Positions 27,660 through 59,540 are shown, counted from the first letter of the stretch. The stretch is DNA of 64,000 bases from Anaerolineae bacterium (GCA_041300525.1 JBGLNJ010000001.1:748854-812853), one strand, 5' to 3'. Numbers and translations are program-made. The notes: generated by a model from the letters alone, not told the origin.

Positions 27660-28301
27660 ATGCAAGAGCTGTGGAATTTATTTCTGCGATTTGCCGGGCT
27701 GATCGCGCTGGTCTGCGCGGTTGCCGCCGCCTATAACCTCGCCATGGCTTACCGTGCCCATCGCACCGCGCGGTCGGCGCTGTTCGACGCGGAACGCCAG
27801 GTGATGAATGACCGCGTGAGCCGCTCCGGTGTCATCGGCTTGGTGTTGCTGGGCGTGACCTTGTTGTTCTTTGCGCTGGCGGTGATGGGCGGAGGAAGCG
27901 CCGCGCCCGCCGAGCAGCCAACGCGCGTGCCGACGCGCACGAGCACGCCGCGCGCAGGCGGTACGCCGGCCCAGCCTGGCACGCCCACCTCGTTGCCGAC
28001 TTTGGCCGGGCCGACAGTGCCGCCCCCTCCGGGAGCGACCAAGACGCCGTCGCCCGCGACGCCGACGAGATCCGCCACAGGCGGCAGCAAGACGGCCGTC
28101 GTCACGGGGACGGCAGACGTAGGCGGGTTGAAGCTGCGTCAGACGCCGAATGGCGAGATCATTGACTCGCTGGCGGATGGCACGGTCGTGGAGCTTTTGA
28201 ACGAAACCAAGACCGAAGTGGGCATCGAGTGGCAGAGGGTCCGCGATGCCAAGAACCGCGAAGGTTGGGTGGCCGGGCAGTATTTGATTATCAATCCATA
28301 G
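27660..28301 (+). CDS. Membrane-anchored/secreted protein with Pro/Thr-rich linker and C-terminal SH3b-like domain
   Basis: Start MQELWNLFL... with RBS TAGGAGGG. Linker PTRVPTRTSTPRAGGTPAQPGTPTSLPTLAGPTVPPPPGATKTPSP. C-terminal SH3b-like domain (GLKLRQTPNGEIIDSLADGTVVELL...WVAGQYL). Confidence 0.6.
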   Translation: MQELWNLFLRFAGLIALVCAVAAAYNLAMAYRAHRTARSALFDAERQVMNDRVSRSGVIGLVLLGVTLLFFALAVMGGGSAAPAEQPTRVPTRTSTPRAGGTPAQPGTPTSLPTLAGPTVPPPPGATKTPSPATPTRSATGGSKTAVVTGTADVGGLKLRQTPNGEIIDSLADGTVVELLNETKTEVGIEWQRVRDAKNREGWVAGQYLIINP

Positions 28302-28395
28302 ACCCAAAGGGTTTCAGTCAAACCGAAGGTTAGGTCGCGCAACACCAACAGCGACAGGTCCTGCGTTACCCAAACAAATCAATCACTGCTATGCT

Positions 28396-28674
28396 ATGAG
28401 CAAGGAGACTTTAACCGAGCAGGTTGATAACGAGGAAGATGAGTTGCGCCCTGAGTACGATTTATCCCAGTTGCTCAAAGGTGGCATTCGAGGCAAGTAC
28501 ACTGAAAGATACAAAGCGGGCACGAATCTGGTTTTGTTAGAACCGGATGTGGCGCAAGCTTTTCCTGACGACGAAGCAGTTAACGAGGCCCTGCGTCTGG
28601 TAATGCAAATCTCTAAACTTCATATTCAGGCAGATGCTTCATCGCCAGTCCAAAGCGAGGCCTACCTTGGATAA
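28396..28674 (+). CDS. Small BrnA-like/CopG-type antitoxin-like protein (orphan)
   Basis: 92 aa with ELRPEYDLSQLLKGGIRGKY ... NLVLLEPDVAQAFPDDEAVNEALRLVMQ, resembling RHH/BrnA-type antitoxins. No cognate toxin gene is adjacent. Confidence 0.3.
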   Translation: MSKETLTEQVDNEEDELRPEYDLSQLLKGGIRGKYTERYKAGTNLVLLEPDVAQAFPDDEAVNEALRLVMQISKLHIQADASSPVQSEAYLG

Positions 28675-28676
28675 TA

Positions 28677-29576
28677 TCAGTATTGAGCACGACTTTTGCA
28701 CCTTAAAAACTGATCCCCATAACATTCAAGCCTAGGCGATTCCGAAACGTTTTCGCCAGCCCGAGGCAATACTCGCCCTACCTCCACTCCGATTCTCATA
28801 GAGTGGGGCAGGAACCCCTTGGTTAGCTGGTAGAGCCTCCAGCCAACCATGATATGCCATATCATCAAGAGCAATCCGGCGGCGGGTATGAAGCAGACAG
28901 CTAACAGCTCGCTATCTACCGTTGGCACAAAGGCAAAAGCAATGCAATAAGCCAAATCAAACGCACTTGCCAGAATTCCCACATAAGCGGTTGCCCGGTT
29001 GAACACAGCGCTCCGCAGCATGACAACTGAGGCAATCATACCGGCAACGGCAATGAAAAGCAAGCTTATATACCCCCCCGTGCCAGGATGAGAGCCAAGA
29101 TCGCTGAAACGATTGATAGCCAGCATCGCCTGCCCGGCTGCCAGCAACATGGTTCTCTGCGCTTCGGTTGTCGCGGCCGCGTATTGATCGCTGAGGGAAA
29201 GCATGGAGAAAGCCATGTTCGAGGCAAAGTAAACCGCTATCCCAAAAAAGCCCAGGGTCGTAGCGATGGCCATGTAGCTTTTATTAGCTCGCTCAAGGAC
29301 AGCATAGAGGGCGAGAAACATCAAGCCCACAAGAGCATAGTTAACAAGGTCAAAGATGTTGAGGTAAGAGAGTCCCAGGAGCCGATTGCTCTGAAGGAGC
29401 GCAAACCAGTTGCTTACAGTGGCAGGGGAGGGATGCTTGCTGAAAAGCCCGATTTCCGCAGCGATGTTCCTTCTGAAGAGTACACCTGCAATAAGGGCAG
29501 CCACTCCGCCGACTCTGTAGAGGCTCTCCCAGCCGGAGTCTAGAGTTTCGGCATTGGCAACTTTCATGATTTCCAT
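28677..29576 (-). CDS. Polytopic membrane protein of unknown function
   Basis: Start at MEIMKVANAE with RBS GGAAAGGAAGA. About 7 hydrophobic segments. The longer ORF to 29792 lacks an RBS. Confidence 0.55.
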   Translation of the reverse strand: MEIMKVANAETLDSGWESLYRVGGVAALIAGVLFRRNIAAEIGLFSKHPSPATVSNWFALLQSNRLLGLSYLNIFDLVNYALVGLMFLALYAVLERANKSYMAIATTLGFFGIAVYFASNMAFSMLSLSDQYAAATTEAQRTMLLAAGQAMLAINRFSDLGSHPGTGGYISLLFIAVAGMIASVVMLRSAVFNRATAYVGILASAFDLAYCIAFAFVPTVDSELLAVCFIPAAGLLLMIWHIMVGWRLYQLTKGFLPHSMRIGVEVGRVLPRAGENVSESPRLECYGDQFLRCKSRAQY

Positions 29577-29892
29577 TCTTCCTTTCCATTTTGTCCGATG
29601 AACGGCTGGCGTCGCCGGCCACCTGGCATTTATTCGGGATACTTGATTGTACTCCCAAAAGGCGGGGGGACACAAGTGGCCCCACACGGTCAGCGGGGTT
29701 GAAGAGACTCGTGGAAAGTACGTTGAGGTGAAACAAGCAGCAAGCGGGAGGCGTTCAAGGGGGTTCGAGTCCGATGGCTCATAGGGGTGCATGTCCGAGC
29801 GGTGGCAGCGTGATATTTGCGTAAAGACCCGGCGCTAGAGTTGGTGCAGCTGGCGATCCCGCGCCGCGTCTACACGCAGACCCTCCCGATGA

Positions 29893-29943
29893 CCGACGGA
29901 GGACGAACGACGAATGACATGGTCGTTCATCCTCCGTCATTCA
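29893..29943. repeat. Inverted heptamer-array hairpin (GGAGGAC GAACGAC GAATGAC ... GTCGTTC ATCCTCC GTCATTC) overlapping the stop codon of the channel gene
   Basis: Read directly from the sequence. Confidence 0.6.
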
Positions 29944-30398
29944 ACATTCCGCTTGCGCAATTCCTCCAAGATCGCATCCAGCCGTTCGATCATCACCTGC
30001 TGCCCCACGTCCGAGGCTGTGGCCGCTCTATGAGGCAGATCGAGCAACTCGTCCGTCAACGAAGGGCCCACGGTCATGGCCAGGGTTGCAATCGCTCGTC
30101 CCGCCTGCGTTTGCGCAAAGATATCGGCATAGCCCACCGAGAGGCACGTGCCGATATAGTACAGCGCATCCACAAACGTCTTGATCTTGGGATTCGCATC
30201 GCGCTCGGCCAGGTAGAACGCCGCCGACGTTCCCAGCAAGAACCCCGCCAGCGATTCCATCGGGTAACGGGTCAGGCGCTCGACGATCTCGGATTCGATC
30301 TCGCCGCGCTTGTCCACGACCCCGCGCCAGGCCTCGACGACTTGCGCGCTGGAAATGCCCGTAAAGGTTTTCAGCATATCAGGAGTGGACTTTATCAC
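29937..30398 (-). CDS. Two-TM pore-loop ion channel (Ion_trans_2 / KcsA-like) with non-canonical filter SVGYAD
   Basis: TM1 LAGFLLGTSAAFYLA, pore helix and filter FVDALYYIGTCLSVGYADIF, TM2 AGRAIATLAMTVGPSL. The GTG start overlaps the pspA stop (GTGA). Confidence 0.5.
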   Translation of the reverse strand: MIKSTPDMLKTFTGISSAQVVEAWRGVVDKRGEIESEIVERLTRYPMESLAGFLLGTSAAFYLAERDANPKIKTFVDALYYIGTCLSVGYADIFAQTQAGRAIATLAMTVGPSLTDELLDLPHRAATASDVGQQVMIERLDAILEELRKRNVE

Positions 30399-30841
30399 GG
30401 CGTTCTTCTCCCAGACTTGTCGCTCTTTGCACGGCGAGCCTCTTGAGCCTTGTCCTGCAACGCGGCTACGGATGCCTTCATCTCGGCCACCACCTGCCGC
30501 TGATGATCGAGCTTTTTCTGCGATTCCTCGGCCACGCGCTCATACGCCATCTTGCGCTTGAGCGCCCGACGCGCCTGCTCTTCATCACCCGCTTTCAACG
30601 ACGCATCGGTCTTGGCGTCCCATTCCGCGCCTGAGGCCCGCGCGGCTTGCACCTGTTTCTCAAGCTGGTGCTGCTGCGCGATAGCCGCTGCGACGGCATC
30701 TCTGGCTTGCGCGATCCCTTCATCCATCTCGGCCAGATAGTGCGCCACAACGTCCTGCGGATCGGCCTCGTCCATCAGCAGGTCGCTCAGATTGACTTGG
30801 AGTAGAGCAGCAATGCGCCGGGATAGCTTTAGGTTTGACAT
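30395..30841 (-). CDS. pspA: PspA/IM30 (Vipp1) family protein, short 148-aa form
   Basis: Coiled-coil with PspA N-terminal signature (LLQVNLSDLLMDEADPQDVVAHYLAEMDEGIAQARDAVA...). Confidence 0.7.
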   Translation of the reverse strand: MSNLKLSRRIAALLQVNLSDLLMDEADPQDVVAHYLAEMDEGIAQARDAVAAAIAQQHQLEKQVQAARASGAEWDAKTDASLKAGDEEQARRALKRKMAYERVAEESQKKLDHQRQVVAEMKASVAALQDKAQEARRAKSDKSGRRTP

Positions 30842-30935
30842 TCGACTTGATGCGAACGACGGACGTTCGATTCCGTCATTCGTCGTTCGTCACGCGAAGC
30901 GTCCCTCTTTAGGGGGGTTCGCCATTCGCCATTCG
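30842..30935. repeat. Heptamer-periodic hairpin repeat (TTCGTCA / GCCATTC units) between flotillin and pspA
   Basis: ...TCCGTCATTCGTCGTTCGTCACGCGAAGCG...GTTCGCCATTCGCCATTCGTCATGAC. Confidence 0.55.
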
Positions 30936-33065
30936 TCATGACTTGGCCGCTGCGGCATAGCGCAGATAGATATCTTCAAAGTTGGCGTCGGCCAGGAAGG
31001 GCAGCAGCGCCAACGCCGCGCGCGCCTGGGCGACGGCGGGCTTGTCGGCCTCGGCGGCCTTGGCTTCCAGTTGATCGAGCACCTGGCTCACGGTCTGCTT
31101 CTTGAGCTTGTTCACGTCCAGCGTGCGATCCACCACGGCCATGAGCTGTGGCATGAGGGTCGCCACCTGCTCCAGCGTCATCCTCTGGCCGGGCTGTTCT
31201 TTCTTGCCGTTGCCCATCACTTTGTCGAGCAACTGGCTGCCCAGTTCCTTGACCTGCGGCGGCACCGCGCCCACCACGTCATTCATCCCTTCGGCAAACG
31301 ACATCAGGCGCAGGATGCTTTCGGCGGCATCGGGCGTGCCATACATCTTGATCTGCATGTTAGCAATCGCCGCGCCGATAGCTTGCGCGCGCGCCACACC
31401 GATCTGAACCTGGGCATCAAGCTGCATGCGCTGCAACTCTAACTTTTGGCTCACGTTGTCGAACGCCGCCAACGCTTCGGCCTTGGCCTTTTGGCCTTCG
31501 GCTTCGGCCAACCCCTTGGCCTTGACCGTCTCGGCTTCGGCCAGACCTTTGGCGCGGATGACCTCGGCCTCGACCTGGGTGGCCTCGGCCTTGGCGCGGA
31601 TCACGTCAGCCTCTGCCGTGCCTTGCAAGCGAGACGCCTCGGCTTTGGCGCGCAAGACTTCGGCTTCGGCCAGACCGATCGCGCTGGAGCGAGCGCGTTC
31701 GGCGTCGGCGAGCATCTTTTCGGCGTCGCTTTCGGCCTGCGCTTGAGTGCGTTTGGTTTCGGCCTGCTTTTGCGCCGCCTCGAACTCGGCCTGGGCGATT
31801 TGCTTGAGCGCAGCCGCTTGCGCTTCGGCATCGCGAACCTTTTTCAGCACCTCGATCTCGACGGCATTCTTGCGGTCAATCATCAAGCGCTGCGCGTCGC
31901 GCTCGGCCTGAATGACCTGGATAGCGGCCTCACGCCTGGCCCTGGCCGTCTCTTCGACGGTCGTGACGTCCTGCGCGGCCTGCTCGCGTTGAGCGGACAC
32001 CAACAAGCGTTCTTTTTCCGCCGCCTCACGCTTTTGCTGCTCGGTGAGCACCGCGATCTGTTTGGTCTGCTCGGTCACTTCGCTGGCCTGGTTGCGCACA
32101 ATTTCGGCCACCTGGTATTCCTGCTTCTTGCGCTCGTCCTGCACCAGGATGGTCTGCTCCATCTCGATCTCGGACAACTTGACCGCGCGCTCTTTGGCGA
32201 TGCGCCCCTGTTCCGCCGATTGCTCCTGCTCATAGATAGACTTGTCGGCGGTGGATTTTTCGACCGCCTGGCGCGTGCGCACCTCGCGGTTTTGCGTGGC
32301 GGTGGCAAAAGCCAGGTCTTGCTCCATGGTCAGCTTTTCTTTAGCCGTGTTAATGTCGCGTTGTTTGATCTCGACTTCGGTCTTGCGCTCGATGTCGTTG
32401 CGCTCGCGCTGCGCTGCCTGAATGACCTGAGCATTGGCGCGGGCCACCTGAGCGCCGAACACGTCGTCGGTGCCGAACGAGCCTTGACGGGCCGCCTTGA
32501 GCGTGAGGATGCTCACGCTTTCCAGCACCAGGCCGTTTTCCTCCAGGTCGCTCTTGACGCGGTTTTGGACTTCCATGATAAACTTTTCGCGTTCCTGGTG
32601 CAGGCTCATCAAGGTAAAGGTGGCGGCCACATCGCGCAGCGCGCCGTCGAGCTTGGCCTCGACCAGCGTCTTGATGGCATTCGCGTCCACGGACTTTAAT
32701 CCAATCGTGCGCGCGGCGTCAATGATGCCTTCCACCGTCGGGCTGACCTTGATGTAAAAAATAGCCTTGATGTCCGCATACTGCGGGTCTTTGGTGAGGA
32801 GCGCGTTCTGCTCGGTGCGCTCGATCTCGATTGCCATCGTGCCCAGGTCTACCCACGTGACCATGTGGATGAACCCGAACACCCACGACCCGCCGTTCAT
32901 CACGACCTTGGGCGGGGCGTCGGGCTTGCGCAAAAATCCGCCCGTGCGCACGAACGCCCGGTTGGCTGGCGCTTTGACGTAGGACTTGGCAATCATCGCA
33001 AAGAACACCAAGACTGCGATGCCGACAAGACAAGAGATGGTGACTGCTAGTAACATGGGATCCAT
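30936..33065 (-). CDS. Flotillin-like protein (SPFH/band-7 domain plus a long Ala/Glu-rich coiled coil), 709 aa
   Basis: N-terminal TM, SPFH domain (...GGSWVFGFIHMVTWVDLGTMAIEIE...), and extended EA-repeat flotillin-type coiled coil. Confidence 0.85.
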   Translation of the reverse strand: MDPMLLAVTISCLVGIAVLVFFAMIAKSYVKAPANRAFVRTGGFLRKPDAPPKVVMNGGSWVFGFIHMVTWVDLGTMAIEIERTEQNALLTKDPQYADIKAIFYIKVSPTVEGIIDAARTIGLKSVDANAIKTLVEAKLDGALRDVAATFTLMSLHQEREKFIMEVQNRVKSDLEENGLVLESVSILTLKAARQGSFGTDDVFGAQVARANAQVIQAAQRERNDIERKTEVEIKQRDINTAKEKLTMEQDLAFATATQNREVRTRQAVEKSTADKSIYEQEQSAEQGRIAKERAVKLSEIEMEQTILVQDERKKQEYQVAEIVRNQASEVTEQTKQIAVLTEQQKREAAEKERLLVSAQREQAAQDVTTVEETARARREAAIQVIQAERDAQRLMIDRKNAVEIEVLKKVRDAEAQAAALKQIAQAEFEAAQKQAETKRTQAQAESDAEKMLADAERARSSAIGLAEAEVLRAKAEASRLQGTAEADVIRAKAEATQVEAEVIRAKGLAEAETVKAKGLAEAEGQKAKAEALAAFDNVSQKLELQRMQLDAQVQIGVARAQAIGAAIANMQIKMYGTPDAAESILRLMSFAEGMNDVVGAVPPQVKELGSQLLDKVMGNGKKEQPGQRMTLEQVATLMPQLMAVVDRTLDVNKLKKQTVSQVLDQLEAKAAEADKPAVAQARAALALLPFLADANFEDIYLRYAAAAKS

Positions 33066-33168
33066 TGTGCGCCTCCTCTATATGATACTTGACGAGTGAA
33101 ATGTGATGCGCGCAGCGCGCCTCACAATCCGCCGGCATGACGACAAACAGCTTGTTCGCCTTGCCGTG

Positions 33169-33498
33169 TTAGCGCCTGGGATGCAGCAGATTCATGCCGG
33201 CGCTGATCAAGGTATTGGCAAGCCCCACGGCAATGTAGAGCAAGACAATCGGCAAACCATAGGCCAGAATCTCTGCGGGCACCGTCAACAGTCCACCTTC
33301 CCAGCCGATGGACAGACGATCCGGGAACAACTGTCGGAAAAAAGCCAACTCTTTGGGGTCAACGAATAGCGAATAGATCTCCAACAACACCCCCAACGCC
33401 GCCCCCAGACCGCTCAGAATCAAAACGTAGCCCATCCCGTTTTTCAGATTCACCGGCTTGTAGAGGGTATCGAATTGACCGCCTGGTTCCTGTATCAT
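33169..33498 (-). CDS. Small two/three-TM membrane protein (operon partner of the NfeD-like gene and flotillin)
   Basis: 109-aa ORF with hydrophobic helices (YVLILSGLGAALGVLLEIYSLF; ILAYGLPIVLLYIAVGLANTLI). Start may be the internal MGYVLIL at 33435. Confidence 0.4.
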   Translation of the reverse strand: MIQEPGGQFDTLYKPVNLKNGMGYVLILSGLGAALGVLLEIYSLFVDPKELAFFRQLFPDRLSIGWEGGLLTVPAEILAYGLPIVLLYIAVGLANTLISAGMNLLHPRR

Positions 33499-33527
33499 GT
33501 CAACCTCAGCCTATCGCCTTTCACGCC

Positions 33528-34355
33528 TCACATCTCCGACGGCACGACGATAAACACCTTCTTGGCCGTGTCGTACTCGACCAGAATCACTTCGGTATCG
33601 CGCGGGATGGCGGGCTTGCCCGGATCAACCACGGCGAACACGGTGATGAGCGTGCCGCCCACATCGCGCAGCTTGACCTGGCCGTACTTTTCGTCCACCT
33701 GCGGGCTGACGACATACCCGCGCCGGCTCACCAGCCGCTTGACCGAGGTGGCCGTGCTGGAAAAGGCCGGCACCGCACGACCGATGAATACCGCCACGCG
33801 CGAAGTCAACAAGAATGCAAGGAACAAGTCCAAAAGTAAAACGACAACCAGCGCCCAACCGGGATAGGGACGGAATACGCCAACCACAGAGGCATTGGCA
33901 ATCCAGCCCAAAATTCCAAACCCGCCCAGCAATACCAGCAGAATCATGGTTACGGGCGCCTGACCCACGCCCAGGAATTGCAGCGCCCCCGCCCACGCGG
34001 GCAGGCTTCCCGCGTCGTGGCTTACGTCGTGGTCCACATCGTGGTCAACATCGTGATCCATATCGTGGCCCAGGTCGGCGTCGTGCTCCACGGCGAGGTC
34101 GTGGTCTACCGCCACATCGTGATCTAGGGCGAGGTCGTGATCCACGGCAAGATCGTGATCTAGAGCGAGGTCATGCTCCAGGCTGACGTCGTGATCCAGG
34201 TCAACGTGAACATCTGCGTCGGCATCGGCATCGTGATCTTGTTCCAGGCCGAGGAACTGTAAAGCCGAAAGACCGAGGAAGGCCAGGAGCGCCAACGTGA
34301 ACGGGATATTGTACCAGGCGGTGGCGAATGTCCACAGGTCAACGAGAGCTTTCAC
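33528..34355 (-). CDS. NfeD-like (YuaF-type) membrane protein with C-terminal OB-fold and an inserted His-Asp hexapeptide repeat tract
   Basis: GTG start after RBS AAGGAAAAAG (VKALVDLWTF...). HD-repeat DHDADADADVHVDLDHDVSLEHDLALDHDLAVDHDLALDHDVAVDHDLAVEHDADLGHDMDHDVDHDVDHDVSHD. C-terminal NfeD OB-fold (GYVVSPQVDEKYGQVKLRDVGGTLITVFAVV...VEYDTAKKVFIVVP). Confidence 0.65.
   Translation of the reverse strand: MKALVDLWTFATAWYNIPFTLALLAFLGLSALQFLGLEQDHDADADADVHVDLDHDVSLEHDLALDHDLAVDHDLALDHDVAVDHDLAVEHDADLGHDMDHDVDHDVDHDVSHDAGSLPAWAGALQFLGVGQAPVTMILLVLLGGFGILGWIANASVVGVFRPYPGWALVVVLLLDLFLAFLLTSRVAVFIGRAVPAFSSTATSVKRLVSRRGYVVSPQVDEKYGQVKLRDVGGTLITVFAVVDPGKPAIPRDTEVILVEYDTAKKVFIVVPSEM
33990..34240 (-). 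repeat. In-frame ~18-nt tandem repeat encoding (D-H-D-[LV]-A-[LV])n
   Basis: DNA periodicity GGCGAGGTCGTGATCCAC / GGCAAGATCGTGATCTAG / AGCGAGGTCATGCTCCAG on the plus strand. Confidence 0.6.
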
Positions 34356-34554
34356 GTTACTTTTTCCTTGCCGTCGGCAAAGCCAGAGGCGCGCGAGAGG
34401 CTCTGCGACGATGCGCGGGTTGCTGCCCATTCAGGAATCTGGTTCGGCCTTGATTCTATCACACGTCTACCCGGGAATCAACTCCGGGAGGCGAACCGAA
34501 GCGGACAGTTGGCTGACACAAACGGAAAGGCCCTGTTGGATTCACGATTTTTCC

Positions 34555-35304
34555 TCACTCGGGCCGGTGACTGCTTTTCTCCGACCGCCGGGACAAGCTC
34601 ACCAACGAGATACCCAGCGCCACCAGCCCGACGACCTGTGCCGCACGCCATCCGCCCGGCAGCAAAAGACTATCCGCGCGAAAAGCTTCCAGGAACACGC
34701 GTTGAGCGGAATACAATGCCAGGAACAATAGCGTCGCCGTGCCAGGCTTTGGATGACGACGCAGCATCACGAGCAACACGAGCAGGGTCGCCAGCATTGC
34801 CAACATCTCATAGATTTGAGTCGGGTGACGCTCCATGTCCCACAACTCGATGGCCCACGGCAGCGTCGAAGGCGTCCCGTAAGCTTCGCCGGAGAACAAA
34901 TTCGACAGCGAGACCGCAGCAAGCAAGAAGGCCGCGCCCGGCGTCAGCGCGTCGAGCCAGCGCGCAGTGAGCAACTTGTTACGCCAGGCATACAGCGCCC
35001 CGACCGACACGCCCACACCCCATCCTCCTGTCGCATCCAGCGTGCTCAAGTTCAGCGAGACAATGCCCAGTGGGTCGCCTGCAAATGCCGTCCAGTGTGT
35101 CAAGACGTACCACACCCGCGCGCCGAGGATGCCGGCAACCGCCGCGTAAAAGCCGGGGTTGTAGACGTCGTCGTCCTTCAGCCCAAAAGTCTTGGCTCCG
35201 CGCGCCGCCACCCACAGCGCCGCCCCAAAGCCAAATATGACGATCAGGCCAGGCAACTGCACCACCACGGGGCCGATGTGTATCACTGGCGCCGGAAAAA
35301 TCAC
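34555..35304 (-). CDS. lgt: Prolipoprotein diacylglyceryl transferase
   Basis: ...APVIHIGPVVVQLPGLIVIFGFG... and HPTQIYEML align to Lgt signatures. Confidence 0.8.
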   Translation of the reverse strand: MIFPAPVIHIGPVVVQLPGLIVIFGFGAALWVAARGAKTFGLKDDDVYNPGFYAAVAGILGARVWYVLTHWTAFAGDPLGIVSLNLSTLDATGGWGVGVSVGALYAWRNKLLTARWLDALTPGAAFLLAAVSLSNLFSGEAYGTPSTLPWAIELWDMERHPTQIYEMLAMLATLLVLLVMLRRHPKPGTATLLFLALYSAQRVFLEAFRADSLLLPGGWRAAQVVGLVALGISLVSLSRRSEKSSHRPE

Positions 35305-35319
35305 GCCGCTGCTCCATCA

Positions 35320-35360
35320 TCAGACGAAGGACGAAAGGCCATCGTTCGTCCTTCGTCATT
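35320..35360. repeat. Inverted heptamer-array hairpin (GACGAAG GACGAAA ... CGTTCGT CCTTCGT CA) between lgt and the tlpA-like gene
   Basis: Read directly from the sequence; it overlaps the tlpA-like stop codon. Confidence 0.55.
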
Positions 35361-35883
35361 TCATCAAGTCCGTGACTTTGCTCTCAATGGCGGCCTTCGT
35401 CAGCGGCCCACCTACAATCATGTCACGGATCGTTCCATCGCGCCCGATAAAGAGCGTCGTCGGCAGGCCCTGCACCCGGTAAAGCGCAAGCGCCTCGCCA
35501 TCCGAATCGAGCGCCACCGGGAAGGTCAATCCGATGCCCGCCACGAATTGGGTCACAACGTCTTGCGGCTCGGCGACGTCTACGCCGATGATCACCAGGC
35601 CCTCGTCACGATGATTCTTGTAGACCTCCTCGAACGCCGGCAACTCGGCGCGGCAAGGCGGGCACCACGTGGCCCAAAAGTTGACGATCACCGGCTTGCC
35701 GATCTGCCGAGAAAGGGTGAACGTTCCGCCGTCGAGCGTGGGAAGAGAAATGTCCGGCGTGGCGCGCCGGGCGCGCTCGCGTGTTGCCAGCGCCCCCGGC
35801 GCACGCGAGGCAATTGTCCACGCCGCGCCTGCGACGAGGATTACCACGATCAATACATTCCACTGAGCACGAAAGAGTTTCAT
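35356..35883 (-). CDS. TlpA/ResA-family thiol:disulfide oxidoreductase (thioredoxin fold, membrane-anchored)
   Basis: Start MKLFRAQWNVLIVVILVAG (signal anchor); WATWCPPCRAELP active site. Confidence 0.8.
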   Translation of the reverse strand: MKLFRAQWNVLIVVILVAGAAWTIASRAPGALATRERARRATPDISLPTLDGGTFTLSRQIGKPVIVNFWATWCPPCRAELPAFEEVYKNHRDEGLVIIGVDVAEPQDVVTQFVAGIGLTFPVALDSDGEALALYRVQGLPTTLFIGRDGTIRDMIVGGPLTKAAIESKVTDLMK

Positions 35884-36147
35884 TTTTCGGATGTGGGAGT
35901 GATAAAGGAATAGGCTTGGCGGTGCCGGTATTTTAGCCCACTTGCAGCGGTTGCGCAACAGGTCGCTTTGCGGGGCAAGTTTCAGTTCTAGTATTTGAGA
36001 GTTGGGGATTATGATGTTATAATGAGATTGGAGACTGTCTGAATTCAGCGAGCGCCGGCTTTTGGCGAACACGCCGCAAATCGGCGTTCCAGTGCCAGCC
36101 GACTGTTGTGTTCCGTCTTTCAGACAAGCTCTCAAGGAGGCAACAGC

Positions 36148-36417
36148 ATGAAGATAGAGTTGGACGACAAGGAACAAAAGGTGTTGAACACGCTGGCTCG
36201 CAGCGGCGTGATGAGCCCCAGCCAGGTATCGGCCGAAACATGGATCCTTCCCGGCGACACGCTGGCAGTGATCAAATCGCTGGCCGACGCAGGGCTGGTG
36301 CAGATGCGCGAAGACGCCGACAGCACCGACGGCAAGCTGGTGGCGCTCACGGCTCAGGCTCGTGACCTTTTAGACATGGGAAACAAGCGGCAAGTGAAAC
36401 TCTTTAGCAAGAGGTGA
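36148..36417 (+). CDS. Small winged-helix/HTH-like protein (89 aa), unknown function
   Basis: RBS AAGGAGG; MKIELDDKEQKVLNTLARSGVMSPSQVSAE... Its stop overlaps the next gene's start. Confidence 0.45.
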   Translation: MKIELDDKEQKVLNTLARSGVMSPSQVSAETWILPGDTLAVIKSLADAGLVQMREDADSTDGKLVALTAQARDLLDMGNKRQVKLFSKR

Positions 36418-36420
36418 TGT

Positions 36421-37479
36421 ATGGCCCCACTCCCCGGCGCGGAAGCCACACCGCCCTCCACCAATGAACCTCGGCGAGGGCCAGGCGGCTGGACAGTTTT
36501 GACTGTCCTGCTGCTCCTGGCCCTCGCCGTTTTTCTCGCCTTCCCCATGCAGACCGTCTCGCTTCAACCGTGGGTACCCGCGCTGCAAGCTCAACTGCGT
36601 ACTGGGGTCGGCCAGGGCTGGCCGTATGTCGCCGTCGCGCTGCTGGGCGCGATTGTCGGTCTGGCTGAGATCGTGTCCACCTTTCCCAACTATCCGCGCG
36701 AGGCGCTCCGCACGCGCTGGGCGCAGAATCTTGTCCTGGTCAACGCCGTTGCCGCCCCGCTGGCCTTGGCGGTCGTGCAGATTTATGCGCCCACGACCAA
36801 CTTGATCCTGACGGTGCTCGGCGTGGGCATCGGCTTTCAGGCCATCATCCGCACCCGCTTTACGCTCGCCAGGCAGATCGGCGGATCGGGCGAAGGCGAC
36901 GTGAGCCTCAACCTGGGTTGGCTGTACGAACAGTTCCAAAACCTGTGCAAGACGCAAATTGACCTGGAGCTGATGAACGGCCGCCGGACAGCGGTGACAC
37001 GCCTGATCGAACGCTATCCGACGCTGGCCGAGCTGCACGACATTGCCGAGTACACCGTCATCGCGCGCGCCACGCTCACGCCCGATGAGGAAAAGGCCAA
37101 GCAGGCCGATTTGGACCGATTGTTCGACCCGAAAGCGCCGGCCAACGTCGCGCGGACCGGCTTGGCCCTGATAATCCTGGAAAACGGCGGGCAGGCTTAC
37201 GTGGACCTGCTCCTCAGCCAACCCGCCGTGCCTGTCAAATCCACCTCGCCTGAGAGCGTCGTCAAAAGCCTGATTGACAGGTACTCGCTCAACGACCTGG
37301 TTGCGCTCGCCCTGCGCCTGATGACGTCGCAGCAGGAACAAAACTGGGTTCAGCAGGCCGCGCAGCCTGCGCCCGGCATGAACGAAGCCAGCCAGAAAGC
37401 CTTCATCGCCCGCTTTTTGGTGGAGCGCATCGGCGCAGAGACCGTGTTAAAAGCCCTGACCGAACCTCCCACAGAATAA
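36421..37479 (+). CDS. Membrane protein of unknown function (4-5 TM N-terminal half plus soluble C-terminal half)
   Basis: 352-aa ORF translationally coupled to the small HTH gene. No recognisable catalytic motif. Confidence 0.45.
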   Translation: MAPLPGAEATPPSTNEPRRGPGGWTVLTVLLLLALAVFLAFPMQTVSLQPWVPALQAQLRTGVGQGWPYVAVALLGAIVGLAEIVSTFPNYPREALRTRWAQNLVLVNAVAAPLALAVVQIYAPTTNLILTVLGVGIGFQAIIRTRFTLARQIGGSGEGDVSLNLGWLYEQFQNLCKTQIDLELMNGRRTAVTRLIERYPTLAELHDIAEYTVIARATLTPDEEKAKQADLDRLFDPKAPANVARTGLALIILENGGQAYVDLLLSQPAVPVKSTSPESVVKSLIDRYSLNDLVALALRLMTSQQEQNWVQQAAQPAPGMNEASQKAFIARFLVERIGAETVLKALTEPPTE

Positions 37480-58318: not shown

Positions 58319-59494
58319 ATGAACGGACGATTCGGACCTTATGGGGGCCAGTTTGTCCCCGAAACACTGATGCCTGTGCTGGCAGAGTTGGAAGAATCGC
58401 TCAATGCGGCGCTGGCCGATCAAGAATTCTGCGCGCAACTGGCCGACCTGGCCGCGCATTACTCGGGCCGGCCCACGCCGCTCTATTTTGCGCGGCGGCT
58501 GACGGAATATTGCGGCGGCGCGAAAATCTATCTCAAGCGTGAAGACCTGGCCCACACCGGCGCGCATAAAATCAACAACGCGCTCGGACAAGGGTTGCTG
58601 GCGCGGCGTATGGGCAAGGCGCGCATCGTGGCGGAAACAGGCGCGGGACAGCACGGCGTCGCGTCGGCGGCAGTGTGCGCGATGCTCGGCCTTCAGTGCG
58701 TCGTCTACATGGGCACGGAAGACATGCGCCGTCAAGCGCCGAATGTGTTTCGCATGAAATTGCTGGGCGCCGAGGTGCGCCCGGTGGATGGCGGCAGCGC
58801 CACACTCAAGGATGCCATCAACGAAGCCATCCGCGATTGGGTGACGAACGTCCGCGACACGCATTACCTGCTCGGCTCCGCGCTCGGCCCGCATCCTTAT
58901 CCGATCATGGTGCGCGAATTTCAATCCGTCATCGGCCACGAGGCGCGCGCGCAAATCCTGGACGCGGAAGGCCGGCTGCCGGATTTGCTCATCGCGTGCG
59001 TCGGCGGCGGGTCGAATGCTATCGGTTTGTTTGATGCTTTCCGCGACGACGACGTCGCCCTGCTCGGCGTCGAGGCGGGCGGATTGGGGATTGCCTCAGG
59101 CCAGCACGCGGCGCGGTTTGCCGAGGCGCGGCCTGGCGTGTTGCAGGGGACGTACACCTACGTCTTGCAAGACGACGACGGTCAGATTCGCGGCACGCAC
59201 TCGGTTTCGGCCGGGTTGGACTATGCCGCCGTCGGCCCGGAGCACGCTTACTTGCGCGACACCGAGCGCTCGGGTTACACCTATGCCACCGACGATGAGG
59301 CGCTCAACGCGTTCGCCAAGCTGTCGCAGATCGAAGGCATCATCCCTGCGCTCGAATCGGCGCATGCAGTGGCGGAGACGATCAAGCGAGCGCCTATGAT
59401 GAAGCGCGACCAGATTATCCTGGTGAATTTATCGGGGCGCGGCGACAAGGACTTGCAGACCGTTATGGATGCTGGAATGGCGAATGACGAATGA
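58319..59494 (+). CDS. trpB: Tryptophan synthase beta subunit
   Basis: [18 protein letters not shown]...; PLP-binding [10 protein letters not shown]-terminal MANDE* is encoded by a heptamer repeat. Confidence 0.9.
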
Positions 59495-59540
59495 CGAAGG
59501 CATAGTTCATCTTTCGTCGTTCGTCCTTCGTCAGTCTTGA
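59474..59540. repeat. Inverted heptamer-array hairpin (GAATGGC GAATGAC GAATGAC GAAGG ... CTTTCGTCGTTCGTCCTTCGTC) spanning the trpB stop
   Basis: Read directly from the sequence; the TGA stop lies within the GAATGAC unit. Confidence 0.6.

Follow-up and report, generated by a model that had tools for sequence, protein, structure and literature searches.

A pore-loop channel subfamily with a variable second-glycine position in its selectivity filter, encoded beside YqiJ-like NfeD and flotillin genes

I analyzed a stretch of 64,000 nucleotides (nt) from an Anaerolineae bacterium (GCA_041300525.1, JBGLNJ010000001.1:748854-812853), here called the window, in which a gene on the minus strand encodes a small channel-like protein of 153 amino acid (aa) residues. 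Positions are counted from the first letter of the window. An initial annotation had described a KcsA-like pore-loop channel with the filter SVGYAD, translationally coupled to a pspA gene, and had named PspA/IM30 as the partner that ties the channel to membrane stress. The layout, the filter and the coupling have stood, while PspA as the defining partner has not. The partners that recur at nearly every informative locus in three phyla are a YqiJ-type NfeD protein and a long flotillin. It is proposed, with a probability of roughly 0.6, that the channel may form a tetrameric, weakly selective cation pore working inside a flotillin/NfeD membrane domain.

Gene organization of the locus

The channel gene is, as read from the gene order, the last gene of a predicted five-gene operon whose first gene is yqiJ-like. 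The genes follow one another on the minus strand as listed.

33528..34355, minus strand: YqiJ-like NfeD-family membrane protein (275 aa in the assembly's gene call; the maximal open reading frame [ORF] extends to 34430)
33169..33498, minus strand: predicted protein of 109 aa with two transmembrane (TM) helices, between the yqiJ-like and flotillin genes (ORF and gene call)
30936..33065, minus strand: long flotillin (YqiK/FloT-like SPFH protein) of 709 aa (Pfam Band_7, 62.6 bits; NCBIfam FloT)
30395..30841, minus strand: short PspA/IM30 homologue of 148 aa (126 aa in the assembly's call; PspA_IM30, 64.3 bits; TIGR02977)
29937..30398, minus strand: channel gene, 153 aa; the product is a predicted pore-loop cation channel subunit ("SVGY-x-D/N" subfamily of the Ion_trans_2 superfamily; ORF, Pfam, family conservation, AlphaFold2 [AF2] and Foldseek)

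The gene call of the source assembly for the channel is identical to the ORF at 29937..30398. The YqiJ-like protein matches Pfam YqiJ_N (PF21001) with 32.6 bits against a cut-off of 23. The PspA of the window spans positions 5-135 of the 220-position PspA_IM30 profile, and the C-terminal part of canonical PspA is missing. Orthologues at two related loci (L002 and L003) share the short length, so the truncation is not confined to the window. The 109-aa ORF had no family match and no counterpart in the related loci examined; it was found only in the source genome.

A compact and unnamed subfamily

One check proposed in the initial annotation was a hidden Markov model (HMM) search against Pfam Ion_trans_2 (PF07885). 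The model matched channel residues 55-114 with 35.8 bits (E 7.4e-9), above its curated cut-off of 22.5. NCBIfam gave weak, partial matches to K+-channel equivalogs only, far under their cut-offs. Thus, the libraries searched hold no dedicated curated family for this protein. Homologues are numerous: a single-sequence search returned 260 at E≤1e-3, a profile search returned 824 at E≤1e-8, and an exhaustive HMM search of representatives grouped at 50% identity yielded 203 clusters with E<1e-10.

Among the 120 homologues nearest to the channel (60-100% identity), conservation runs along its whole length. In an alignment reaching down to ~30% identity (overall identity 30-40%), residues E65, N69, S87, V88, G89, G100, G111 and P112 are invariant. 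The core from P46 to P122 has zero indels and the same length in 148 of the 148 aligned members. It can be written as P-x18-E-x3-N-P-K, followed by D-A-L-x-Y-x-[ST]-T-x-x-S-V-G-Y-X-[D/N], T-x-x-G-[K/R] and G-P. The invariant residues, the lack of indels between P46 and P122, and the presence of Ala91 in 118 of the 120 close homologues indicate purifying selection. Judged from these alignments, the channel ORF belongs to a genuine, selected gene family and is no chance ORF; the subfamily is compact and unnamed.

Two proteins, P0182 (1975 aa) and P0189 (1368 aa), reached E values of ~1e-23 against the channel profile through the sum of 12-14 weak matches, which fall on NLFVDTQTSRVGVG repeats. 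Both are very long repeat proteins and were rejected as false positives, which shows that summed multi-domain scores need caution.

Fold and anatomy of the channel protein

The structural elements of the channel protein are placed as follows.

30204..30263, minus strand: outer helix TM1, residues 46-65 (AF2 helix; fixed length in 148/148 members; hydropathy)
30138..30176, minus strand: pore helix, residues 75-87, FVDALYYIGTCLS (AF2 helix 75-87)
30123..30140, minus strand: selectivity-filter motif S87-V-G-Y-A-D92 (sequence and conservation)
30042..30107, minus strand: inner helix TM2, residues 98-119 (AF2 helix 98-119; profile alignments; invariant columns)
29943..30029, minus strand: C-terminal amphipathic helix, residues 124-152, including IERLDAILEELR (AF2; predicted local distance difference test [pLDDT] 82-90)

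When the family profile was compared with the sequences of the PDB, it matched KvAP (E 2e-8), KCNQ2 (3e-8) and KcsA (~1e-7). These alignments span the C-terminal half of the outer helix, the turret, the pore helix, the filter and the inner helix; those to KvAP and KCNQ2 stop at the gating-hinge glycine of K+ channels, here an invariant Gly-Pro. An AF2 model made with 148 diverse sequences has a pLDDT of 78 (>90 in the core), with helices at residues 46-65, 75-87, 98-119 and 124-152 and an extended loop at 88-97. Foldseek with this model against the PDB returned exclusively K+-channel pore domains (KCNQ2, KcsA, MlotiK1 and Kv) with a probability of 1.00, and the template modelling score normalised to KcsA was 0.64-0.69. 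Thus, the claimed K+-channel layout of two predicted TM helices and a P-loop is supported by Pfam, by the profile matches, by AF2 and by Foldseek. The initial annotation had named two outcomes that would speak against it, the lack of an Ion_trans_2 or K+-channel HMM match and a structure prediction incompatible with a tetrameric pore, and neither was found. It was silent on the one-residue deletion before the filter, the short and weakly hydrophobic TM helices and the Gly-Pro hinge, which are described below.

From the outer helix through turret, pore helix and filter to the inner helix, the protein is laid out like KcsA and KvAP. The shared motifs are LAE[RK], which closes TM1, DAL[YW][YW] of the pore helix, x-V-G-Y-x-D of the filter, T-x-x-G-[KR], which opens TM2, and the hinge glycine; a C-terminal helical bundle region, as in KcsA, is also predicted. 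Several differences are evident. The channel has Ser for Thr and Ala for the second Gly of the filter, and an additional N-terminal helical domain of ~45 residues. It is one residue short between DAL[YW][YW] and the filter, where every HMMER alignment to KvAP, KCNQ2 and KcsA has a gap. The resulting spacing from the aromatic pair of the pore helix to the filter is non-standard for K+ channels and is the same in 148 of the 148 family members.

The two TM helices also differ from those of KcsA and KvAP, with far lower hydropathy and only ~16 apolar residues in TM1. From the invariant P46 to the invariant E65, TM1 always has 20 residues, and its apolar part of ~15-16 residues lies between a conserved P-x-[D/E] and A-E-[R/K]. 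The helices predicted by AF2 have 20 (TM1) and 22 (TM2) residues, yet their hydropathy is low; Ala, Gly, Ser and Thr are abundant in them. TM2 has the invariant G100, and G111-P112 occupies the position of the gating-hinge glycine. Past this hinge the sequence becomes polar (LTDELLDLP). Presumably there is no equivalent of a bundle-crossing gate, as none is evident when the channel is aligned with KcsA.

The C-terminal helix shows a heptad pattern (I137, L140, L144 and L147), and L140, I143, L144 and L147 are conserved in it. It is probably a tetramerising coiled coil, to judge from this pattern. A Chloroflexota subgroup with the sequence TCASVGYAD (L020, 7905-8363; L119, 6001-6462; P0121-P0134) is without the C-terminal coiled-coil helix; its proteins stop just past an LDRP motif.

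The selectivity filter

Residues 87-92 read S-V-G-Y-A-D, as had been claimed. The canonical signature T/S-x-G-Y/F-G, with both glycines, is absent. Is this a peculiarity of one protein? In the representative set, which is HMM-based and free of motif-search bias, the filter context is [ST]-T-x-x-S-V-G-Y-X-[D/N], where X is mostly A, then S, D, G, H, C and T. For the loci L002-L034, filter conservation is partly circular, as TCLSVGYA[DE] was among the search patterns; the statistics were drawn from the HMM-based searches. As far as the aligned sequences tell, SVGYAD is a family trait; SVGY is constant and the residue at the second-glycine position varies freely.

Mutation of the second glycine is stated to abolish selectivity or function (PMC3283738). 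HCN and NaK channels, in which outer filter sites are lost, are non-selective (bioRxiv 10.1101/2024.01.22.576648). Because position 91 varies, and in view of these precedents, reduced discrimination between K+ and Na+ may be expected, and a loss of strict K+ selectivity in the SVGYAD channel is plausible from its sequence. NaK (TVGDGN) and the HCN/CNG channels have the tetrameric pore-loop architecture with the inner filter sites kept and the outer ones changed, and they are likely to be a functional analogy for weak selectivity. The solutions differ: HCN keeps GYG and rotates the Tyr, NaK replaces the Tyr, and the present channel keeps the Tyr and replaces the second Gly. No sequence-specific relationship of the channel to NaK, HCN or CNG was found. 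In the literature searched, "GYAD" together with "selectivity filter" returned nothing.

Alternatively, the protein may be a small, essentially K+-selective channel that is linked to flotillin by chance, the SVGY carbonyls being sufficient and Ala being tolerated in a remodelled scaffold. The invariance of S-V-G-Y, the retention of the pore-helix aromatics and of the Asp after the filter, and the family members that carry GYGD are in line with this. Pores of the KtrB type are reported to be able to select K+ despite non-canonical filters (PMC6888753). However, the position of the second glycine also accepts Asp, His, Cys, Ser and Thr, which is hard to square with the canonical geometry of the S1/S0 sites. 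The one-residue deletion beside the filter and the mutational literature on the second glycine (PMC3283738) also speak against strict K+ selectivity. I consider this alternative somewhat unlikely.

Linkage to yqiJ-like and flotillin genes in three phyla

Which genes accompany the channel in other genomes? I collected 33 genome loci from contigs of one genome per species, which belong to Chloroflexota, Myxococcota (Polyangiales) and Planctomycetota (Phycisphaerae). In 28 or 29 of the 33, a yqiJ-like gene, a flotillin gene and the channel gene follow in this order on one strand. In Myxococcota, the flotillin stop codon often abuts or overlaps the channel start codon. Among the remaining genome loci, one is cut at the contig end with the C-terminus of a flotillin visible, and one is uninformative. 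The same arrangement was found on metagenome contigs with independent gene calls and precomputed Pfam annotation: Band_7/Flot is directly followed by Ion_trans_2, SVGYDD and SVGYHD variants included. The gene upstream of Band_7/Flot has a YqiJ_N match on one contig and a phmmer match to YqiJ queries on the other two.

A metagenome scan of the SVGYSD subfamily gave 80 further loci with more diverse gene orders. The order yqiJ-flotillin-channel occurs in 13 of them, and channel-yqiJ(-flotillin), often with 4-nt overlaps, in 28; in six, flotillin-yqiJ and the channel gene are divergent. None of the SVGYSD loci with at least 1 kb on each side was without yqiJ or flotillin. The flotillin matches at channel loci cover the SPFH domain plus the coiled coil. 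In summary, the constant genomic partner of the channel at nearly every informative locus is a YqiJ-type NfeD protein with a long flotillin, in three gene orders and three phyla. That the linkage is kept in several phyla despite changes in gene order argues strongly for a functional tie.

The two-gene core is not new. E. coli YqiJ-YqiK and B. subtilis YuaF-FloT (NfeD2-SPFH2) consist of a YqiJ_N/NfeD protein and a long flotillin, and the operons of PspA, band-7 and YqiJ-YuaF proteins described by Ravi et al. 2024 (PMC11237479) have the same core with an occasional PspA. As described, none of these includes a pore-loop channel gene; the sole K+ channel to appear in PMC11237479 senses ligands and belongs to polyamine operons. 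The literature searched returned nothing on NfeD, flotillin, potassium channel and operon together, and the comparative-genomics papers on SPFH and phage shock proteins found there are silent on the linkage. Thus, the fold and the superfamily are already known, while I did not find described, in the literature searched, the SVGY-X filter, the one-residue deletion, the Gly-Pro hinge, the short weakly hydrophobic helices or the near-obligate linkage to YqiJ and flotillin.

The YqiJ-like protein of the window carries a His/Asp-rich loop of ~85 residues (..DHDLAVDHDLALDHDV..), which is encoded by an imperfect 18/36/54-nt tandem repeat (34027-34198, minus strand). The YqiJ partners at other loci also have Asp/His/Gly-rich loops. 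The composition of the loop suggests binding of metal, protons or cations, which may be relevant to the channel partner.

PspA as a lineage-specific neighbour

The junction of pspA and the channel gene has two features.

30395..30398, minus strand: GTGA, where the GTG start of the channel gene overlaps the TGA stop of pspA (read from the sequence)
30408-30412, minus strand: Shine-Dalgarno-like GGGAG, 9 nt 5' of the channel GTG

The channel GTG lies at 30398-30396 and the PspA TGA at 30397-30395, so that the two genes overlap by 4 nt. On the minus strand the junction reads ...AGA ACG CCG TGA overlapping GTG ATA AAG TCC ACT CCT GAT ATG. GTG is the first possible start in the channel frame, and the conserved residues P6 and D7 precede the next ATG. 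Thus, GTG is the sole start that fits the conservation. The overlap bears out, for the source genome, the claim that the channel is translationally coupled to pspA.

Is PspA then the main partner of the channel? In such a case, an ion leak would be regulated together with the phage-shock membrane-stress response. The 4-nt overlap is also present at L002. In the clade of the window (L001-L003), PspA lies between flotillin and the channel in short forms of 126-148 aa. In a second Chloroflexota subgroup, whose channels are ~44-47% identical to that of the window, three loci (L119-L121) have Band_7, a 201-aa PspA and the channel, with a 2-nt spacer at L119, and at another (L020) PspA genes flank the channel left and right. 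A link between PspA and SPFH proteins is known in B. subtilis, where it involves YdjI (PMC8581546), and operons that combine PspA, band-7 and YqiJ-YuaF proteins are described (PMC11237479). However, these seven loci are the only ones where PspA adjoins the channel. It is absent at the other ~110 loci, which include those of Anaerolineales and Caldilineaceae (L004-L008), all loci of Myxococcota and Planctomycetota, and all 80 SVGYSD loci. Moreover, the N-terminal domain of the channel is conserved in Chloroflexota with or without PspA, and the PspA of the window is a truncated form. PspA as the main partner is therefore unlikely. The restriction to some Chloroflexota indicates a lineage-specific accessory, and the role of defining partner that the initial annotation gave to PspA passes to the YqiJ-like NfeD protein and flotillin, which adjoin the channel almost everywhere.

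A fusion of the channel with PspA was sought by eye, with no Pfam scan, among the longer homologues (P0131, P0137, P0161 and others), and none was seen.

A putative cation pore in a flotillin/NfeD membrane domain

The following mechanism is proposed for the weakly selective pore. Four subunits would form an assembly centred on the pore helix and the filter, and the C-terminal coiled coil would keep it together. The inner filter sites formed by the carbonyls of Ser87, Val88 and Gly89 would be retained. With Ala in place of Gly and a pore helix shortened by one residue, the outer sites would be remodelled, and K+ would probably pass with reduced discrimination against Na+. The inner helix would break at Gly-Pro, and hence there would be no bundle-crossing gate. 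Since no inner gate is evident, control is most plausibly external: gating or confinement may come from the flotillin/NfeD assembly, in whose membrane patch the channel would sit as a client. In some Chloroflexota, PspA may have been added as an accessory membrane-stress module. I infer tetramer formation, ion conduction, weak selectivity and contact with flotillin or YqiJ, and a physiological role as a regulated cation leak or flux tied to a membrane-domain or stress function.

Several observations weigh against this proposal. The first group concerns the protein itself. The Foldseek E-values are just ~1e-3 even for the good AF2 model. A shallow model from 32 sequences, which the 148-sequence model superseded, was poor (pLDDT 61), and Foldseek gave nothing meaningful for it; weak matches of that model to MIT domains were disregarded. 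The 19-residue Kyte-Doolittle maximum (KD19) is 1.07 in the channel, as compared with 2.5 in KcsA and 2.2 in a viral Kcv. The family median of KD19 is 1.37, and 32 of the 148 members reach the usual threshold of 1.6. With such weak hydropathy and such short helices, stable membrane spanning and conduction are not guaranteed. GYGD is kept in ~8-10% of the family clusters, so that the family may serve some purpose other than altered selectivity. The second group concerns the linkage. The flotillin pair is missing at L014 (Sorangium sp. So ce375) and L030, two loci whose flanking sequence is ample, and gene adjacency is no proof of physical interaction.

The L014 gene (NZ_CP150335.1, ~7.416 Mb) belongs to a cultivable myxobacterium. 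It encodes an SVGYAD channel with an Ion_trans_2 score of 29.9 bits and has no adjoining YqiJ or flotillin gene; it could act as a natural control for the flotillin-linked channels.

The weak hydropathy and the short hydrophobic spans also raise the question of whether the protein conducts at all. It may be a relic of a pore domain, that is, a small oligomeric membrane protein serving as a cation-binding, structural or sensor subunit of the flotillin/NfeD assembly. The lack of a bundle-crossing region past the Gly-Pro hinge, the strict association of the channel gene with scaffold genes, and the abundance of small residues (A, G, S and T) in the helices, which would suit packing with partners, are consistent with such a role. 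On the other hand, conservation is strongest in the ion-coordinating elements (the pore helix, SVGY and T-x-x-G), for which a mere anchor has no need. The helix after the filter is also about as long as that of Kcv, a viral miniature channel that reportedly conducts. The Kcv family (82-94 aa) presumably resembles the present channel in its minimal TM module, in having no bundle-crossing gate, and in the ~26-27 inner-helix residues that follow the filter. The Kcv channels differ in their canonical GFGD or GYGD filters, in their strongly hydrophobic helices (KD19 ~2.2), and in having no cytosolic domains. A non-conducting relic is thus improbable, and the weakly selective pore is preferred.

How closely may such a pore and its partners be joined? 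Eukaryotic flotillin forms a closed cage, the wall of which is said to be an impervious barrier to diffusion, and the confinement of channels in SPFH cages has been hypothesised, still as a proposal (PMC11260169). The idea of an SPFH scaffold or cage regulating or confining a membrane client also applies to the eukaryotic pairs of MEC-2 with DEG/ENaC channels and of stomatin or STOML3 with ASIC or Piezo, and to HflK/C-FtsH (PMC11260169). In the eukaryotic pairs the channels are unrelated in fold to the present one and there is no operon link, whereas here the pairing comes from gene neighbourhood only. The YqiJ-like NfeD protein, flotillin and the miniature channel might be one physical machine, a bacterial SPFH cage that surrounds or gates a cation pore of weak selectivity with no gate of its own. 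This extension of the proposal is tentative, with the odds somewhat against it.

SPFH proteins (stomatin, MEC-2, STOML3 and flotillins) have long been known as modulators of ion channels. Cryo-electron microscopy has revealed that they form closed membrane cages, the clients of which, besides FtsH in HflK/C, are largely unknown. A channel family tied to flotillin and NfeD would offer a defined three-gene system that makes the cage-confinement hypothesis biochemically testable. If the three proteins are indeed one machine, it would be the first operon-defined module of an SPFH protein and an ion channel, and a prokaryotic model for the control of channels by stomatin and flotillin and for the contents of the cages. 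The family is also a natural experiment on the K+-channel filter, asking how much of the canonical signature conduction and selectivity need. In some Chloroflexota, where PspA is associated with the channel, one operon would bring ion flux together with flotillin domains and membrane repair of the ESCRT-III type.

Other features of the region

Upstream of the cassette (34555-36177, minus strand) lie genes for a thioredoxin/AhpC-like protein and the prolipoprotein diacylglyceryl transferase Lgt, and ~360 nt downstream of it (28677-29792, minus strand) lies a gene for a DUF4386 membrane protein. At the related loci these neighbours are not retained. With PADLOC there was no hit for the channel, flotillin or YqiJ, and the sole hit for PspA was a weak coiled-coil one to LmuB. 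No plasmid match was found, nor any match of the channel in a phage collection. On these grounds, an anti-phage defence system or a mobile element was rejected.

Scans for promoters and terminators performed no better than on shuffled sequence, and Rfam had no match across 28000-36500. A tRNA-like GGTTCGAGTCC string downstream of the channel gene was rejected as a tRNA by ARAGORN. A hairpin was found at the end of the channel gene.

29894..29939, minus strand: RNA hairpin of 18 bp with no U tract (fold -35.3 kcal/mol, z -3.7)

The hairpin begins right at the stop codon of the channel gene, and the following gene starts ~360 nt beyond. It is probably an operon-end element or a repetitive extragenic palindromic (REP)-like element. 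A 16-mer of the hairpin, ACGAACGACGAATGAC, recurs in a hairpin of the flotillin-pspA spacer (30875-30890, minus strand), and three degenerate copies are located near 59.5 kb (59480-59531). With five matches in the window against 0.03 expected, the 16-mer looks like a dispersed palindromic element of the REP type.

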